A stretch of 64,000 nucleotides of DNA from an uncultured Pseudomonadota bacterium (GTDB lineage Bacteria > Babelota > Babeliae > Babelales > Vermiphilaceae), in the NCBI GenBank assembly GCA_964553945.1, contig CAZKLV010000002.1, positions 271,774 to 335,773 on the forward strand, given 5' to 3'. The position numbers and the translations under genes were made by a program. The notes below the pieces were generated by a model that did not search any database, was not told the origin of the DNA, and saw only the letters and a program-made list of their open reading frames with translations. Positions 2,070 to 28,755 of the stretch are shown here, piece by piece. The stretch's first letter is position 1. Each line of letters opens with the position of its first letter.

Positions 2070-3188
2070 CTATTCTTCACTCAACTGCTCTTCATCTTCA
2101 TCTTGAGCCTCTTGCCCCGATTCCATCGGAACGAGCATGGCTTCTTTTACTTTTGCGTAAATTTCATTTGCAAGCGCTTTATCTTTTTTGAGCGCAATCA
2201 GTGCCTGATCTCGGCCCTGAGCTACTTTATTGCCTGCATATGAAATCCATGCACCAGATTTTTGCATTACTTCATAATGTAATGCTGCATCGAGCAAATC
2301 AAGCTCACGGCTAATTCCCTCAGTAAATAGAAGGTCAACTTCTACTCGTCTGAATGGAGGGGCAACCTTATTTTTCGCGACCTTCACGGCAATACGATTG
2401 CCAAAATGAATATCATTCTTTTTGAGGCTCGCTACACGGCGCACATCCAAGCGCAATGATGCATAGAATTTCAATGCTTTACCACCTGTCGTGGTTTCTT
2501 TATCCGCAAACGGAAGCGCATTAATCGTTTGGCGAATCTGGTTAATAAAAACCAAGACCGTTTTTGATTTATGCACAACCGGCGTTAACTTTCGCAATGC
2601 TTGAGACATCAAACGTGCTTGAAGACCCATATGAACATCGCCCATATCTCCTTCAAGCTCTGCTTTTGGCACCAAAGCTGCTACAGAGTCAACAACAATA
2701 ATATCAACTGCGCCGGAACGGACTAACATTTCTGCAATATCAAGTGCTTGTTCGCCATAATCTGGCTGAGAAATGATCAATTCATCAATGTTAATGCCAA
2801 GATTCTTCGCATGATTTGCATCTAGCGCATGTTCGGCATCAATAAATGCACAAATGCCACCATTTTTTTGCGCCTGAGCAATAGTATGTAAAGCGAGAGT
2901 TGTTTTACCAGATGCTTCAGGTCCGTAGATTTCAACTATACGCCCACGCGGCAAGCCGCCAACGCCCAACGCGTGATCAATAAGAATTGAACCGGTTGAA
3001 ATAGCCTCCACTTTATTGCCGCCAGTTTGACCCAAAAGCATAACAGCTCCGTTGCCATACTGTTTATCAATCTGAGAAAAGGTTACTTCAAGCGCCTTCT
3101 TTTTAAACTCACGTTCTTTTTCAAGTGATGCATCAAACGCAGGAATCATCGAGTCGTTCGCCGTACCTCTTGCTGTTTTACTTTTCAT
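2070..3188 (-). CDS. recA: recombinase RecA
   Basis: Walker A motif [16 protein letters not shown], plus FIDAEHALD and [20 protein letters not shown] motifs, and an acidic C-terminal tail. Confidence 0.97.
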
Positions 3189-3201: not shown

Positions 3202-5106
3202 TTACTGTAGATGCTGCATTAACGATTCATTAATTTCTATTCTAGCATTTCTCGCCAAAGAAGCAACAAATCCGAGGATTAGGTCCCCTCTGCGCTCTTG
3301 TTCAAGAGACCGAGTAATGCCTACTTCTTTTTGTTTGAAATCCGCTTGATTAATTGGCTCAATTTCCTCTAATCTGACGATAAATCCAGCTGTTTGGCCA
3401 TCATGGATAATGGTACTGCCGGCCTTTTCCATTTGTAACATTGCAGTCACAGGCACACCACGCTTAGAAAGCGCTTCAAAGCCTTCTCGTTTTTTGCTCG
3501 TTAACCAATCAGTTTTTTCAAGGGTTCCATGGGTAATCGAAGCTAATTCCTGAGTCGAAACTGTTGACGCTTTGTGTTTCATATCTTCAAGTAAGGTGGC
3601 AAGCTTTTTGCGAGCCTTATACTCGTAATAGTCGCTAAGCACCTGAGCACGAACTGCTCCAAAGTTTGGCGCGTATGATTGTTCAATATTATTTAATTGA
3701 ATGACATACCCAACCCCTTTATCAACATAGAATGCAACGCCATTTTCTTTAAGGCCAAAAAGCTTCTGTGCTTGTGCTGATGCATCTTTGGTTACATGCT
3801 CAAGCTTTTGAGATGTTGCCCCTTTTTTATGTGCAAGATCTGCAAGGGAAGCTGATTTTGATTCAGCAGTTCTGGTAATGCGTTTGAGATCATCTGTAAA
3901 TGAATCTTGGAACTTACGTTGAGCCATCATCTCTTTGATTTCTTGTTTGACCGCACTCAATGGTTTGAATGTACGATTTTTACGGTCAACGCGTTGCAAT
4001 AATTCATACCCATTATCAGTCGCAACAACTGGAGAAATATCTCCATTTTTAACGAGTGAAAATGAAGCTTGCTCAAATGTTGAACCATAATCACTCTCAT
4101 CGCGAGCAAAGAATGAAGTTAATTGACTCTTTTTAGCAAACTGTTCAGGATTTTTAATAAACTCCTGGCGAGCAGCTTCTGCTTGATTTTGATCAGGATA
4201 GATAATGCGACGAACCTGCACCTTAACTGGCTCATCCACATAAAGTTTCATTTTATTTTTTTCATAGTACGAACTAATCACCTCATCAGAAGGCTGTACT
4301 CCATACGCATCCGCCTTGAAGGTCCATACGGTACCAGATCGCTTTTCGGGAACCCAATAACGTTTGCTTTTAGTGTTTTCAAGATTAAAGAACTGCTCTA
4401 AATCAGCATCCTTCACTTCATTCTTCTTTTCCTGATTGATAAGGGTTTCAAGAGAAATGGTGACAATCGAATATTTTTTACCCACATATTCGGCAATATA
4501 TCGCTGTAACACATCAAACCTTGGCACGTAGACAGCTGAGCTTAATATCTCGAGCATAGTACGACGAACCAATGCGCGAGCAACTGCTTCTTCAAACTCA
4601 GCAATATTCATGCCACGTCGACGCAAATGCGCCTGAAGAGCTTCTCGATTAATACCACCGGCTTGATCAAAGACTTGCGGAGGAACAAGTCCCATCAACG
4701 ATTGTTCTCGCATGATAAACATACGATCTGCAAGTTTTTGAGTTATAAAATCTGACCCAATTTGAACCCCAAGCTCTTTACCCATTTGATCAAGAAGCTC
4801 CTGATCAACGAGTCCCTGATATGCAAGCGAATAGGGATCCATTGATATTCCTTGGGATTCAAAGAGCATTTGCGCATATGGACCATACTGCTCTTTTATA
4901 TATGCGATCCGTTCTTGTTCTTGCGCTACCTGTTGAGCAAATATACGATCGGAAATTTCTGAACCATTAACCATTATTGCCCAATTACCTTTGCCATCTT
5001 TTAATAGCATTGGCAGAATATAGCCAACTGCAAGTGCAAATAAAATTACCCACATTGCGTATCGAAGTGACTCACCTTTAAACTGTCTTCGTATCGTTGT
5101 AATCAT
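3202..5106 (-). CDS. PpiD/SurA-like periplasmic chaperone (degenerate parvulin PPIase)
   Basis: 634 aa with a single N-terminal TM segment ([19 protein letters not shown]) followed by a long soluble region with PpiD-like organisation. ATGA overlap with the upstream SPOR gene. Confidence 0.6.
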
Positions 5107-21926: not shown

Positions 21927-22187
21927 TTACTTACCAGAACAACTTGGGCAAGAATCACTACCGCAATGGCAATGTCCGGTCAATGTTTTAATAAACATAA
22001 CCAAGCAAATCAAACCAGCTACACCAATAACATAATGAAGCGGCGCATTCAAAGCAGGATATTTAACCATTAAAAAATCACTTGCAAAAACATCATAACC
22101 GAATGGCGCAAGACCAACGTTGATTGATGCAAGCGCAGTTATTACCCATGCCAAAAAACCAACAAAACGATGTAGAGTAGACTTCAT
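21927..22187 (-). CDS. DUF378-family small membrane protein with Cys/His-rich C-terminal tail
   Basis: FLAWVITALASINVGLAPFGYDVF...LHYVIGVAGLICL matches the YuzA/DUF378 pattern. There is an extra tail, TGHCHCGSDSCPSCSGK. Confidence 0.65.
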   Translation of the reverse strand: MKSTLHRFVGFLAWVITALASINVGLAPFGYDVFASDFLMVKYPALNAPLHYVIGVAGLICLVMFIKTLTGHCHCGSDSCPSCSGK

Positions 22188-22372: not shown

Positions 22373-23416
<1,044 letters not shown>

Positions 23417-23503
23417 ACTCGTCCTTTGAAAAGATATAGTATTTTTTCTCTGCGAGTATCGCATAAGATTTACTCGAATCTCAATTGATCGAAAATAATT
23501 GAA

Positions 23504-24793
23504 TTATTTAACAATCAATAACTCTCGCCAATCGGTGGTGAATCGTGCCGATCGATTTGTCCGATCGGTTTGCGTCATTTTGATATTGGAAATACCAACC
23601 GCTCCGCTAATAATCGTATGCCGGCCCCACTTTGCATTGATTCGATCCATCGTTTTCATAAGCGTATGATGAGCCGAAATGTTTGGCACATGTTCAAATG
23701 CATGAATTTGAACATGATCTCGCGGCACAAAATCAAAGAGCAAAACTCCTGCTTGCTTGTAATCGTACCCATCGCGATAAATCGCTTCAAGCGCTCGGCG
23801 CGCGGCCGTAATTAATATTGGGGTGTAGTCGGTCGGCTCTGGAAGTTCAACGGTATAGGCATTACTGTAATAGACATCATGATTAAATCTACTTGTCGTG
23901 ATAAATACTTGCAATGCCCCCGCTTTGCAATCTTGATCGCGCAATTTGGCAGCTGCACGTGAAATATAGGCCGCGATCGCTTCCATCAGGTGGGTGAATG
24001 TTCGTTTTGGTGTACTAAATGAACGCGTACATGCAATGGTCTGTTTATCTTCAACTTGTTCATCGATAGTAATGCACGAAATGCCACGTAATTCATGTGC
24101 AGTGCGCAGTCCAACAATGGTGAAATTTTTACGGATCCATTCATCCTTTTGCTGTGCAAAATCATACGCCGTATAGAGTCGATACCACTGTAATTTTTTG
24201 GTATATTGGCGCCCAATGCCCCATACATCTTCAACGGGAACAGCCTTCAGGATTTCATCCCACGGCCGTTCGTTGCCAAGAATTGAGGAATCTTGCGACC
24301 GTATTAAAAACACGCCCCCATACTGCGAATTCTTTTTTGCAATTTTAGTCGCAATTTTTGCAAGCGTTTTGGTTGGCGCGATTCCAATCGAGATGGGAAT
24401 GCCGGTCCACTGTTTGACCATTTTACAAAGCATGCGCCCATGCTCTTCCAATTGCTCAAGCGGGACATGCTTCATGCACAAAAACGCTTCATCGATCGAA
24501 TAGACTTCCACATGCGGCACAAACTGCTCAAGCGTTTGCATTACGCGTGCGGACATATCGCCATAGAGTGCAAAATTAGAAGAATAGACATGCACCTTAT
24601 TGCGAGCAACTACACCGGCACATTCAAATAATGGTTGTGCCATTTTAATGCCAAGCGCTTTGGCTTCATTAGAGCGCGCAATAATACATCCATCATTATT
24701 AGAGAGCACCACGACCGGCTTTCCATTTAATTTAGGATTGAATACCCGTTCACACGAGACATAGAAATTATTGCAGTCGACTAAAGCAATCAT
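23504..24793 (-). CDS. umuC: Y-family translesion DNA polymerase subunit UmuC
   Basis: [51 protein letters not shown] is the UmuC/ImpB N-terminus. An alternative start exists at 24811. Confidence 0.9.
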
Positions 24794-24950
24794 AAAAATT
24801 TCATGATCCATTCGTATATAATACTCACCGGCTCGATCATTCGAGAACCTTAGAATCTGAAAAAATATTTGGATTAATATTTATTTATGAAGATCTAAAT
24901 TAACAAACTCAATTCGGCCTGCGCATGCAAGTTAAGAGCAAAAAATATAA

Positions 24951-25865
24951 TTATTCTTTCTCAATACTTTCGCGCAAACCACTATATAGATATTCCACAA
25001 GTAATCGCTTTGCCACTACTTTTAAAAAACCGTCTAAAACCGCATCTATATCATTCAACATACGTTGAACTTCAGAGCATAAATCAGTATCATTCAAAGC
25101 GCGTAATTTTTTTACTTCAGTAAGATTATAAATTATCGGCACATTCTTAACTATTGGCAAATATGCCATCGGCATTAACGCTCTTATTAACTGCTCATCA
25201 AATTCATATTTATTAAATAATAAAACAACATCTTCAGGTATACGATAATGATCAGGCAGATAACGTCGAAAGATGTTTAAAAGTCGAGTATGACATTCTA
25301 GTGGTCCTTTTAAAGACGCATAGACTTTCATCGTTCGTTTCGGCCTCTTTTCCATCAATAAACCAAGTAATTTCTTATGACAATTTTCAAATGAATTGAA
25401 ATATATGGAATCATCCTCAATTTCCTCAAGAAAAAAATCCATGCATCCTCGATCCGCTTTAACTTTATCAACCAAATAATCAACAACTTTTCCCGATTGT
25501 TCAAATTTTAAAGACGATGCATAAAATAATCCAAATACGATACGTCGTTGTAGATCTTCAGCCGGTATAAAAATTTTGCGCAACCAAGATCCTTCACATT
25601 TTTGCTTTATCGTTGCAACATCATTGTTTTGAATCAATTGGCCAAGATTTGAACCAGGAATCTCCATTAAAGCGAGCTTTTTATTTCTCCCAACCACGCA
25701 CATAGCATCATTCAAACTATTGGAAGCACTCTCACTCAATATTTTATTTTCTTGAACTGAATTATTATACGGAGTTTGCAGCTGCATATCTCTCATCTGC
25801 GGCACAACCATCGCTTGTGACCAGCAAATAAAACTGATGCTTAAAATCAACCCAATATACTGCAT
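24951..25865 (-). CDS. leader-bearing orphan protein inserted between umuD and umuC
   Basis: Leader MQYIGLILSISFICWSQAM. Its N-terminal domain is paralogous to that of 26409-27509 (WLRKIFIPAEDLQRRIVFGLFY vs WRKIVHWFLMDEDRLRISLIQSFIY). Confidence 0.6.
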   Translation of the reverse strand: MQYIGLILSISFICWSQAMVVPQMRDMQLQTPYNNSVQENKILSESASNSLNDAMCVVGRNKKLALMEIPGSNLGQLIQNNDVATIKQKCEGSWLRKIFIPAEDLQRRIVFGLFYASSLKFEQSGKVVDYLVDKVKADRGCMDFFLEEIEDDSIYFNSFENCHKKLLGLLMEKRPKRTMKVYASLKGPLECHTRLLNIFRRYLPDHYRIPEDVVLLFNKYEFDEQLIRALMPMAYLPIVKNVPIIYNLTEVKKLRALNDTDLCSEVQRMLNDIDAVLDGFLKVVAKRLLVEYLYSGLRESIEKE

Positions 25866-25901
25866 ACTTACTCCTCATATCATTAAATAAAATTTGTATT
25901 T

Positions 25902-26348
25902 TTAAACACTATGTATCACAAAAGTCACCACACCCCAGACATCAAATGACATTTCATCTGTAATGCGTTGCGGTTTATAATTTTTATTTTCCGGCACCAA
26001 ATAGGTGTGCCGTGCGCGATGCTCAATTCTTTTGACCGTAAATTCACCATTAATCTGAGCCACCACGATGCGCCCATGCCGCACTTCAAGTGCACGATCA
26101 ACAATTAAAAGATCACCCGAGTAAATTCCGGCATTGATCATGGAATCGCCTTCAACGCGAATAAAAAATGTAGCAGCAGGATGTTGTATGAGAAATTTAT
26201 TCAGATCAAGTTGATTCTCAACGTAATCATCAGCAGCAGATGGAAATCCGGCGGAAATATAATCAAGAACAAACGGGATTTCGCAATCCGAGGGCGCTAC
26301 TTTGGGAATACCAAAAGCGGTAATAATAAGATCTTTTTTTGATAACAT
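25902..26348 (-). CDS. umuD: UmuD / LexA-like S24 peptidase
   Basis: GFPSAADDY, VEGDSMINAGIYSGDLLIVDR and INGEFTVKRIE carry the Ser and Lys dyad motifs of the S24 family. Confidence 0.85.
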   Translation of the reverse strand: MLSKKDLIITAFGIPKVAPSDCEIPFVLDYISAGFPSAADDYVENQLDLNKFLIQHPAATFFIRVEGDSMINAGIYSGDLLIVDRALEVRHGRIVVAQINGEFTVKRIEHRARHTYLVPENKNYKPQRITDEMSFDVWGVVTFVIHSV

Positions 26349-26408
26349 TATGGGCCCTCGCGCAGATATATTCAGATCAATTGAAATAGAGTTTTTTCAC
26401 TTCTTTTC

Positions 26409-27509
26409 TTAAAAAAGAAGCTTGCGCAAAGGCAAACACCCTTCCTTCTGATTTGATGTAACATTGTACCAACAGGCTTCTTCCTTTGCCATGCCAAACT
26501 TCTCGCGCAATTTATTTGCGATCTCAAGCCCTTCGATTGAGGTATCTGGCCCACACACAGCTCCGCGAGCAAGCAACTCCCGCACCTCATCTACAAGAAT
26601 CCTTTTATCATACAATAGAGCATCCAATGGTGTACGCTTTTTTGTTATGATATTACCCTTTTCGTCTATTTTTAGAGTTCCATTCGCATCCACATCCTGA
26701 AAGAGCGTAAGACAATTAATAACGCGATCAGGGACCTTCTTAATTAACTCACGAAGCAATGAAAACTGCTTAACAATTGCCATGTGGAGCACAGAACCAT
26801 CGTTTAAATTACAATAAGCAAGGCTTACATTAAATTTCGCTAATATAATTGCAGCATTCGTTTTATCATTGTAAAGCGCCTCAATAAGCAAGCGGTTATT
26901 AAACTTTGATGCAGCCTTTGCGCATCTCATAAGCAACGATGTATGATTCATTTGAAGAGCATGGTGAGCAACACTGGTTATCGCATAATGCATAATTGGG
27001 TGCTCTAGTAGCTCAACCAATATCTGTTCATGCTCATTTTCAAAAGCATTCAAAAGTATACAATTTCCATCATACGCAAGGATAGCTGGCAACCCGTTTT
27101 CGCATTCAGAATTATGCACGCACCCCCTCTTTATTTTACCCCAAAGATACATAGCTACTTGGCCCGTTGTTTCAGAGGGATATTGCATGGCATAGATAAA
27201 ACTCTGTATAAGGGAAATCCTAAGCCGATCTTCATCCATTAAAAACCAATGCACTATCTTGCGCCATCCAGCTGGACCATCAAAATAATTACGTACCGCT
27301 TGCACATCATCAGTTACAATGGCACACCCCAAAGGTGAATCCTCTATTTCTCGGATTGAAGGATCATGGTAACGAATACCATTACACGCATAAGGAGATT
27401 CGTGACTCATTATTTTCGGAAAAGAAAATGACGGTGAGCAAACCACCTTTTGAACCATGCCGGATACGGGCGCCGCGATAAAACTTAAAAAAAGAAGAAA
27501 ATAAACCAT
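26409..27509 (-). CDS. leader-bearing protein, N-domain paralogous to 24951-25865, C-terminal ankyrin-like repeats
   Basis: Leader MVYFLLFLSFIAAPVSGM. It shares an N-terminal block with the umuDC-internal gene. ANK-like segments include GSVLHMAIVKQFSLLRELIKK and RTPLDALLYDKRILVDEVRELLARGA. Confidence 0.6.
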   Translation of the reverse strand: MVYFLLFLSFIAAPVSGMVQKVVCSPSFSFPKIMSHESPYACNGIRYHDPSIREIEDSPLGCAIVTDDVQAVRNYFDGPAGWRKIVHWFLMDEDRLRISLIQSFIYAMQYPSETTGQVAMYLWGKIKRGCVHNSECENGLPAILAYDGNCILLNAFENEHEQILVELLEHPIMHYAITSVAHHALQMNHTSLLMRCAKAASKFNNRLLIEALYNDKTNAAIILAKFNVSLAYCNLNDGSVLHMAIVKQFSLLRELIKKVPDRVINCLTLFQDVDANGTLKIDEKGNIITKKRTPLDALLYDKRILVDEVRELLARGAVCGPDTSIEGLEIANKLREKFGMAKEEACWYNVTSNQKEGCLPLRKLLF

Positions 27510-27642
27510 GCTATTTGAAACCTTTAACTAAAAAAAGAATGAAATTCATGATAACTGAGATGCATTATTTTGAAAAGTAAAAACCATAAAAATATGCTAT
27601 ACTAAAGGCATAAATTAGAAATTCATACGGAGTAAAAATCAA

Positions 27643-28755
27643 ATGGCAATTCAAGCAGGCCTGGTTGGCCTTCCAAACGTTGGGAAATCAACCCTTTTTA
27701 ATGCCCTCACCAAATCAAGTGTTCCAGCAGAAAACTACCCTTTTTGTACCATAGACCCTCACTTGGCAATTACCGAAGTACCGGACCCGAATCTCGATAA
27801 ACTCCTGGAAAGCTATGGCTCGCAAAAGAAAATTCCAGCAACGGTCACGTTCGTCGATATCGCAGGGCTCGTTAAGGGTGCCGCTGCCGGCGAAGGCTTG
27901 GGCAACCAGTTTTTAAATCACATTCGGGAAGTCGATTTGATTTTGCATGTACTGCGCTGCTTTGAAAACCAAGATATCATTCATTCTCATGGAGTCATCG
28001 ATCCAATTGCCGATTATGAAACTATTGTGGCCGAACTCATGCTCAAAGATTTAGAATCGGTCGATAAACGCCTCGAACGCTTGCCAAAATATATCAAAAC
28101 GGCAAAAAATCCGGCAGAAAAGAAAGAACTGGAGGATGAGCTTGCTCTGACCGAAAAAATTAAAGCGGCACTTAATGAAGGAAATCCTGAATTGGTGCGC
28201 TCCTATGCGATTCAAGCAACTCAAAGCAAAGTTATTCTCGTCCCGTTGCTCAGCGCAAAAAAATCAATCGTCATTGCCAATATTTCCGAAGACGAAATCG
28301 AATCATACCAAAACAACAAACATTACCAGGCGCTAGTAAATCGATTTGGTGCAAGTAATGTGATTCCTGTCTGCGTTCGCACTGCGTATGAACTTTCACA
28401 GCTCGATGAAGCTGATGCTCTAGAAATGATGGCAATGCTTGGCCTCAAAGAAAAAAGCTTGGATACCATTATTCGCCGTACCTATGAAAACCTTGGCCTC
28501 ATTACCTTCTTCACCTGCGGGCCAAAAGAAGCACACGCCTGGCCAATTCGTAAAGGGATCACCGTTCGCCAAGCAGCCGGCGAGATTCACTCTGATTTAG
28601 AACGTGGATTCATTTGTGCCGAAATCTTCAATTGCAAAGATCTCTTTGAGCTGGGCTCTGTAGCAAAGGTCAAAGAAGTAGGTAAAATGCGAACCGAAGG
28701 CCAAGATTACATCATGAAGGATGGAGATATTATTAACGTGAAATTTAACGTGTAA
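27643..28755 (+). CDS. ychF: ribosome-binding ATPase YchF
   Basis: [45 protein letters not shown] and a C-terminal TGS-like region, [22 protein letters not shown]. Confidence 0.95.

Follow-up and report, generated by a model that had tools for sequence, protein, structure and literature searches.

The genome of an uncultured bacterium of the phylum Dependentiae contains, within a stretch of 64,000 nucleotides (contig CAZKLV010000002.1 of GenBank assembly GCA_964553945.1, positions 271,774 to 335,773; here called the window), the genes umuD and umuC of DNA polymerase V (Pol V), and between these two genes lies a segment of 1108 nt carrying a gene that we call orfB. The reading that we favor, and to which we assign a probability of roughly 78%, is that the locus represents a canonical and still functional umuDC operon in which orfB would be a lineage-specific passenger at the umuD|umuC junction, while the gene upstream of umuD, orfA, would be a resident of the neighborhood. 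The source genome (G000; order Babeliales) is assembled to 1.47 Mb in 54 contigs with a completeness of 96.7%. A preliminary description of the locus had been made from the letters and a list of open reading frames (ORFs) alone, and it was followed up by Pfam and BLASTP searches, a survey of the phylum, AlphaFold2 (AF2) modeling and the estimation of ratios of nonsynonymous to synonymous substitution rates (dN/dS). The four ORFs on which it was built were reproduced on the minus strand with the same coordinates and gaps. In 5' to 3' order they are orfA, umuD, orfB and umuC, separated by spacers of 60 nt (26349-26408), 36 nt (25866-25901) and 157 nt (24794-24950), respectively:

26409..27509, minus strand: orfA (366 aa), leader-bearing, probably a highly divergent ankyrin-repeat protein
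25902..26348, minus strand: umuD (148 aa), intact, Pfam Peptidase_S24 (PF00717) with E 9e-33
24951..25865, minus strand: orfB (304 aa), leader-bearing, all-helical orphan with 34% G+C, below its neighbors
23504..24793, minus strand: umuC (429 aa from the ATG at 24793), intact Y-family polymerase, Pfam PF00817 IMS (2.8e-38), PF11799 IMS_C (1.4e-18) and PF13438 DUF4113 (8.5e-14)
24794..25901, minus strand: extra segment of 1108 nt, absent in the closest relative found, consisting of the 36-nt spacer with GAGGAG, orfB and the 157-nt spacer (30% G+C)

That orfB is the inserted gene follows from a comparison with relatives, whose contigs were reached via the five full-length homologues of orfA detected among 1.84 billion representative proteins (32-35% identity). 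The comparison makes use of the following genes flanking the locus:

27643..28755, plus strand: ychF, upstream anchor, divergent from orfA, Pfam YchF-GTPase_C and MMR_HSR1, 87-91% identity in L064, L066 and L067
28883-30493: GH1 glycosidase gene near umuDC
22373..23464, minus strand: collagen-like gene (Pfam Collagen), located between umuC and the 86-aa gene, absent in L066, the other lineage-specific insertion of the locus besides orfB
21927..22187, minus strand: 86-aa small membrane-protein gene, downstream anchor, 69-74% identity in L064, L066 and L067

The closest relative found, L066 (Logan contig SRR33375185_395199), shares the neighborhood of the window and contains the GH1 gene, ychF on the opposite strand, an orfA homologue, umuD, umuC, the 86-aa gene and dnaK. 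It differs from the window in that it contains neither orfB nor the collagen-like gene, so that its umuC directly precedes the homologue of the 86-aa gene. In L066, umuD ends with ...VIHSV-TGA, which is followed after 2 nt by ATG ATA GCA of umuC, and this 2-nt gap identifies the unsplit arrangement as the ancestral state and orfB together with its flanks in the window as the insertion. The same comparison supports the ATG at 24793 as the start of umuC, as proposed in the preliminary description, since the L066 protein starts with MIALIDCNNFY 2 nt past the umuD stop codon; the start at 24811 given by the longest ORF is thereby ruled out. As judged from this synteny, orfB is a species-specific insertion precisely at the umuD|umuC junction, and the earlier proposal, in which a leader-bearing paralogue of the upstream gene has come to lie between umuD and umuC, is thus borne out by a relative in which the two genes are unsplit.

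The role of orfA is a different one. In the relatives L064 and L067, whose YchF is 87-89% and whose DnaK is about 89-90% identical to the proteins of the window, ychF, the orfA homologue and the 86-aa gene are present, and umuDC is absent from the locus. Moreover, about 100 nt upstream of the 86-aa gene are conserved between the window and L064. Because orfA is kept beside ychF in both contigs without umuDC, it is a resident neighbor of ychF which happens to adjoin umuDC and which stands outside the operon. The preliminary description had offered as one explanation that effector-like genes colonized an SOS operon, and for the two orphans jointly this is not supported: orfA stands beside ychF, preceded by a promoter-like site, in relatives without umuDC, which leaves orfB as the sole intruder. 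Gene turnover is high locally: when the four close relatives are compared, lineage-specific genes are found at three of the six junctions from the GH1 gene to dnaK, namely orfB, the collagen-like gene, one small gene in L064 and a pair of ankyrin genes in L067. Such genes come and go at numerous junctions of these genomes, and no special reason has to be sought for the presence of orfB between umuD and umuC. This local comparison was used in place of the gene pair ruvA/ruvB, which is not adjacent in the source genome.

Both polymerase genes show the features expected of functional proteins. In an alignment of UmuD with E. coli UmuD (8gmt_B; E 7.5e-36), ISAGFPS stands opposite VQCGFPS and GDSM opposite GDSM, and FTVK is retained, so that the Ala-Gly cleavage site, the serine of GDSM and the lysine of FTVK are all present. 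UmuC contains the acidic motifs DCNNFY and SIDEAF in its N-terminal part, and it is the sole Y-family polymerase match in the source genome. RecA, which is needed for UmuD processing, is encoded in the window as well (recA, 372 aa, 2070..3188, minus strand), and its ORF contains the Walker A motif GPEASGKT and the loop-2 motif. Compared with L066, the identity is 86% for UmuD, 77% for UmuC and 91% for YchF, and dN/dS amounts to 0.08 for umuD, 0.05 for umuC, 0.04 for ychF and 0.41 for orfA, values for which dS is near saturation and which average both lineages. These ratios suggest that purifying selection still acts strongly on umuD and umuC, and that orfA is fast-evolving compared with ychF. 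UmuC proteins from other families (57% identity in G133 and 53% in both G149 and G070) resemble the UmuC of the window more closely than do those from its own family (44-48%). These identities and the patchy occurrence of umuC, which was found in 48 of 261 genomes of the phylum, hint that umuDC has been transferred between Dependentiae or has evolved at very uneven rates.

The inserted gene belongs to a very small family. A word search of 5.8 billion proteins returned orfB itself alone, and no homologue was found in the 260 other Dependentiae genomes. In its own genome, a full-length paralogue with 43% identity is encoded at G000:C1:453708-454592, and a further weak match covers the N-terminus of a 566-aa protein. 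The proportion of nonsynonymous differences between orfB and the paralogue (pN 0.36) is lower than that of synonymous differences (pS 0.80), and orfB thus behaves as a real coding gene. No Pfam family matched orfB; its AF2 model is all-helical with low confidence (predicted local distance difference test, pLDDT, 52.8), and no fold match was found in the PDB (best E 1.1). A tblastn match to a Clostridia metagenome-assembled genome (L001; 34% over 88 residues) was judged to be spurious. As had been proposed, the two orphans share an N-terminal domain: a single BLASTP comparison of orfA with orfB yields 31% identity over 146 residues (E 2e-8), and an alignment of both with the second paralogue contains 43 invariant columns. 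The homology covers residues ~40-172 of orfB and the N-terminal part of orfA, and it constitutes the sole link of orfB to ankyrin proteins.

The assignment of orfA itself as an ankyrin-repeat gene stands in part. Its own sequence gives no Pfam match even at E<=10, so that the label cannot be derived from it directly. All five homologues, however, match Ank_2 (best E 2.5e-13), and the AF2 model of orfA (pLDDT 79.6; predicted template modeling score, pTM, 0.73) returns ankyrin-repeat proteins as all 50 of its 50 best PDB matches, with probabilities up to 1.0, E-values of 0.01-0.1 and low TM-scores. By its homologues and its predicted fold, orfA is probably a divergent ankyrin-repeat gene. The public gene call of orfA begins at Met34 (333 aa; P0002) and drops the hydrophobic leader (window 27411-27509). 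Since the homologues P0003-P0006 retain this leader, the version of 366 aa is the better gene model. Signal-peptide ankyrin proteins are known from other Dependentiae such as Chromulinavorax destructans and Babela massiliensis, with which orfA and its homologues share the combination of leader and ankyrin repeats, the fast evolution and the lineage-specific occurrence. Unlike these proteins, orfA is too diverged for any Pfam ankyrin model, and orfB retains the N-terminal helical domain alone without a confident fold.

The description of both orphans as leader-bearing holds with a qualification. A similar hydrophobic leader ending with ...QAM/SGM is common to orfA, orfB, the paralogue and the homologues, and the hydropathy score in an 11-residue window, which is a crude measure, is 2.6 for orfA as well as for orfB, but a positively charged n-region is missing. 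By the same crude measure, a leader-like N-terminus is found in 24-47% of the ORFs of the source genome. In C. destructans, 44% of the coding sequences carry a signal peptide, as do 78% of its 98 ankyrin proteins (PMC6561590). Given the background of 24-47%, a leader on an inserted gene is expected by chance.

To place the split locus into the context of the phylum, 261 Dependentiae genomes were searched with UmuC and UmuD, matches on the same contig were paired, and the gaps were measured from match to match. In 41 of the 49 pairs umuD and umuC are adjacent, mostly with gaps of 5-33 nt and with a maximum of 196 nt. The remaining eight pairs (~16%) are disrupted:

G000 (source genome): gap of 1111 nt, orfB, same strand
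G039: gap of 1049 nt, a same-strand pair of small leader-bearing paralogues; the sister species G137 has a gap of 25 nt
G133: gap of 1605 nt, a 516-aa leader-bearing gene, opposite strand
G060: gap of 767 nt, a 224-aa gene, opposite strand
G045: gap of 2814 nt, three leader-bearing genes, opposite strand; umuC frameshifted
G010: gap of 1047 nt, no ORF >=90 aa; element resembling a miniature inverted-repeat transposable element (MITE) with ~55-nt inverted arms
G119 and G120: gaps of 206 and 518 nt, umuD and umuC divergent (inversion)

Relatives of orfA or orfB were not found in the other genomes with disrupted pairs; three of the five gene-carrying inserts lie on the opposite strand, and the same-strand inserts of G000 and G039 have no detectable homology to each other. 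By this distribution, the umuD|umuC junction appears to have been disrupted at least seven further times in other Dependentiae, in independent events and by unrelated inserts in either orientation. As the inserts are unrelated and of mixed orientation and include a MITE-like element and an inversion, they are best seen as tolerated passengers rather than as the outcome of a selected coupling of effectors to an SOS operon.

Further details were seen at individual loci of the survey. In the gap of G010 (L011 3963-4988), ORFs reach up to 71 aa, the inverted arms are located at 4173-4227 and 4680-4732, and a 54-nt direct repeat is present. Leader-bearing genes directly upstream of umuD exist in other genera as well: in G133 (L015 3900-4292) a 130-aa leader-bearing gene overlaps with the start of umuD by ATGA, and in G008 (L014 708-4480) umuD is immediately preceded on its own strand by a pair of leader-bearing paralogues (583 and 649 aa). 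The GH1 glycosidase gene is also found near umuDC in the distantly related G045 (L017 7556-8968), in a different arrangement, which may be a coincidence.

How the locus is regulated can be addressed in part by the genes and signals that surround it. A lexA gene is absent from the window, and none was found in the genome, for which, at a completeness of 96.7%, absence is not absolute. The genome encodes two proteins with an S24 domain, namely UmuD and a protein with a helix-turn-helix domain of the XRE type (XRE-HTH), and neither contains the DNA-binding domain of LexA. In 41 genomes, the 240 nt upstream of umuD were searched for operators with half-sites of 4-5 nt and spacers of 0-14 nt; no shared palindrome exceeded the level of shuffled sequences and A/T runs alone recurred. 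A TATACT box resembling a -10 element is present near the umuD start in many of these genomes. The initial statement that lexA is absent from the window and that no recognizable LexA box precedes umuD therefore stands and is extended by the genome-wide survey of S24 proteins.

The XRE-HTH protein with the S24-like domain (225 aa; G000:C1:465611-466285; L003 1126-1803) was considered as a candidate for the LexA of this lineage and was rejected. It is encoded in 255 of 261 genomes with 75-91% identity, and this near-universal distribution is uncorrelated with that of umuDC. Moreover, it contains alanine where UmuD has the nucleophilic serine, and in 81 homologues this position is variable (L in 35, A in 19, Q in 9, G in 4, S in 3, and others), in contrast to the lysine, which is retained; this does not fit an autocleaving repressor. 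The protein looks like a pseudo-peptidase regulator that is highly conserved throughout the phylum, a lineage that lacks LexA.

Signals that may govern the expression of the four genes were searched by consensus scans, with the following candidates:

27548..27576, minus strand: promoter-like site for orfA (TTTTCA, 17 nt, TATCAT)
26420..26437, minus strand: weak terminator-like hairpin with T-run at the 3' end of orfA, 6 pairs of which 3 are G-C; such sites are no commoner than in shuffled sequences
26349..26408, minus strand: orfA-umuD spacer, 60 nt, containing GAGGG, which resembles a Shine-Dalgarno site; the corresponding spacer of L066 measures 43 nt and shows no conservation with it

The promoter-like arrangement upstream of orfA (TTTGCA/TTTTCA-17-TAnCnT) is kept in the four related contigs L064-L067 and thus in five genomes including the window. 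The divergent spacer between ychF and orfA (27510-27642) contains in addition a conserved block, TGCCTTTAGTATAGCA, which, read on the opposite strand, corresponds to a -10 box (TATACT) for ychF. These conserved blocks in five genomes provide a useful first look at promoters of the phylum. A match of 29 nt with 69% identity between the orfA-umuD spacer and NSFEN-coding regions is probably due to chance. A GAGGAG motif precedes the ATG of orfB by 6 nt, and no terminator-like site was detected between umuD and umuC by the consensus scan. The 157-nt spacer in front of umuC folds no better than shuffled sequences (z 0.03), and no Rfam family reached the gathering score between 22000 and 28000.

Taken together, the history of the locus may be described as follows. 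The orfB family is a tiny, fast-evolving family found in the source genome alone, all-helical as modeled, with a hydrophobic N-terminal leader and related to ankyrin-repeat proteins. In the lineage of the source species, orfB entered a umuDC operon that was ancestrally coupled, most likely through duplication or transposition of a paralogue. Since umuD, orfB and umuC share the same strand, a gap of only 36 nt with a strong ribosome-binding site leads to orfB and no terminator is apparent, the three genes would be transcribed together, starting either at a promoter between orfA and umuD or, with read-through, at the conserved promoter of orfA. Thus, orfB would be a tolerated passenger sharing whatever signal drives umuDC, umuC would be translated without coupling to umuD, and the regulation of umuDC would not proceed via LexA.

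Several observations weigh against this picture and have to be set beside it. No direct or inverted repeats or target-site duplication above background surround the insert, which bears on the mechanism of insertion, and the flanks of orfB and its paralogue show no similarity, with DNA similarity being limited to a coding core of 176 nt, which bears on the donor. Export of the orfA and orfB proteins is a property that we infer from hydropathy. Upstream of umuC no Shine-Dalgarno site is visible, and the 157-nt spacer could hide a promoter missed by the consensus scan. Furthermore, umuC is intact behind the opposite-strand inserts of G133 and G060, so that independent expression of umuC is possible in the phylum. 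The dN/dS values argue against a long-standing decay of umuDC, and a very recent loss of constraint in one lineage would be invisible to them.

Two of these points lead to an alternative with the same history and a different transcription, in which umuD and orfB would form one transcript and umuC would be expressed from a promoter of its own that is located in the AT-rich 157-nt spacer or arrived with it. In favor of this are the length of the spacer and its G+C content of 30%; of the same-strand gaps in the source genome only 27% exceed 150 nt, and in G133 and G060 umuC must be served by its own promoter past an opposite-strand gene. On the minus strand between 24794 and 24950, however, the consensus scan detected no sigma-70-like site, a result to be read with the promoters of the phylum being uncharacterized, orfB is not followed by a terminator, and umuC lacks a ribosome-binding site. 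We regard split transcription as a serious possibility which nevertheless falls short of even odds. The absence of a ribosome-binding site and of translational coupling for umuC would also fit a decay of the operon, according to which the phylum is in the process of losing umuDC and the split marks the onset of pseudogenization. The restriction of umuC to 48 of 261 genomes, the lack of umuDC at the locus in two of the three syntenic relative contigs (L064 and L067) and the frameshifted umuC in the split locus of G045 are in line with this, but both reading frames in the window are intact with all catalytic residues, and their dN/dS of 0.05-0.08 is low like that of ychF, which renders ongoing decay rather unlikely.

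The main idea of the preliminary description was an adaptive coupling, in which effector-like genes were recruited to a damage- or stress-induced operon, with the consequence that a secreted host-directed protein would be made alongside Pol V. The position of orfB on the same strand as umuD, 36 nt behind it and with a strong ribosome-binding site and no terminator, would allow this, and similar arrangements can be found in G039, where two small leader-bearing genes occupy the slot on the same strand, and in G133, where a leader-bearing gene overlaps the umuD start; cargo is present at about 16% of the loci in the phylum. Against this stand the persistence of orfA where umuDC is absent, the opposite orientation of three of five gene inserts and the non-homology of those in G000 and G039, and the leaders on 24-47% of all genes, which make a leader-bearing insert a chance expectation. 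In addition, neither LexA nor an operator nor any sign of inducibility of umuDC was found in this lineage, and we consider the adaptive coupling to be quite improbable. Extended beyond this phylum, the idea would make the umuD|umuC junction a general cargo slot in small-genome, host-dependent bacteria, in which inserted genes would profit from the low-level, stress-responsive transcription of Pol V, with orfB being produced together with Pol V upon DNA damage in the host via a LexA-independent circuit, for which we see similarly slim prospects; the present evidence favors neutral passengers over a cargo site. The earlier description had also considered that the insert could be part of an unrelated mobile island; the insert lies outside any such island, as the ORFs and Pfam matches from ychF to dnaK include no integrase or transposase gene and its borders carry no repeats. 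Finally, a misjoined orfB segment in the metagenome bin would be conceivable for an assembly of 54 contigs and a gene whose G+C content of 34% is below that of its neighbors. The public record of orfB, however, lies on a contig of 464 kb, both flanks are in perfect synteny with the relatives, and both joins are placed precisely in the interval from the umuD stop to the umuC start, within clean intergenic sequence, so that an assembly artifact is extremely unlikely.

Compared with characterized systems, the locus is a modest variation on the well-known umuDC operon. With E. coli umuDC (Pol V, UmuD'2C) and with mucAB, impAB and rumAB it shares the S24-type UmuD with the Ala-Gly site and the Ser/Lys dyad, and the Y-family UmuC with DUF4113; the order of umuD followed by umuC on one strand is the same as in E. 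coli umuDC and its plasmid homologues, and recA is present. By its proteins the pair thus belongs to the umuDC systems, and it departs from them in adjacency and in LexA regulation. While the E. coli genes follow the common arrangement, the genes of the window are 1108 nt apart without overlap and with a foreign gene between them, and lexA, a recognizable operator, a ribosome-binding site of umuC and translational coupling are all missing. A paper by Wozniak et al. from 2009 in PLoS Genet reportedly described integrative conjugative elements of the SXT/R391 type in which a variable region is inserted in rumB of rumAB. There, accessory genes are likewise tolerated as insertions in an operon of the umuDC type; the difference is that the insertion in rumAB disrupts the polymerase gene and is borne by a mobile element, whereas the insert in the window is intergenic, leaves both genes intact and is accompanied by neither mobility genes nor terminal repeats. 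In the paper library that was searched, no paper was found that joins Dependentiae with umuC, and none that describes an intervening gene in umuDC.

The locus represents a clean, dated example of the break-up of an operon by the turnover of orphan genes in an obligate intracellular lineage, for which the ancestral state, the insert of 1108 nt and the paralogue can all be identified. Both polymerase genes appear to be still constrained despite the loss of overlap and coupling. For the Dependentiae as a whole, the picture that arises is one of a patchy Pol V, present in 48 of 261 genomes, of no LexA, and of an adjacency of umuD and umuC that is broken at about one in six loci. If the junction should turn out to be a preferred site for co-expressed cargo across phyla, this would offer a new insight into how accessory genes gain stress-linked expression.

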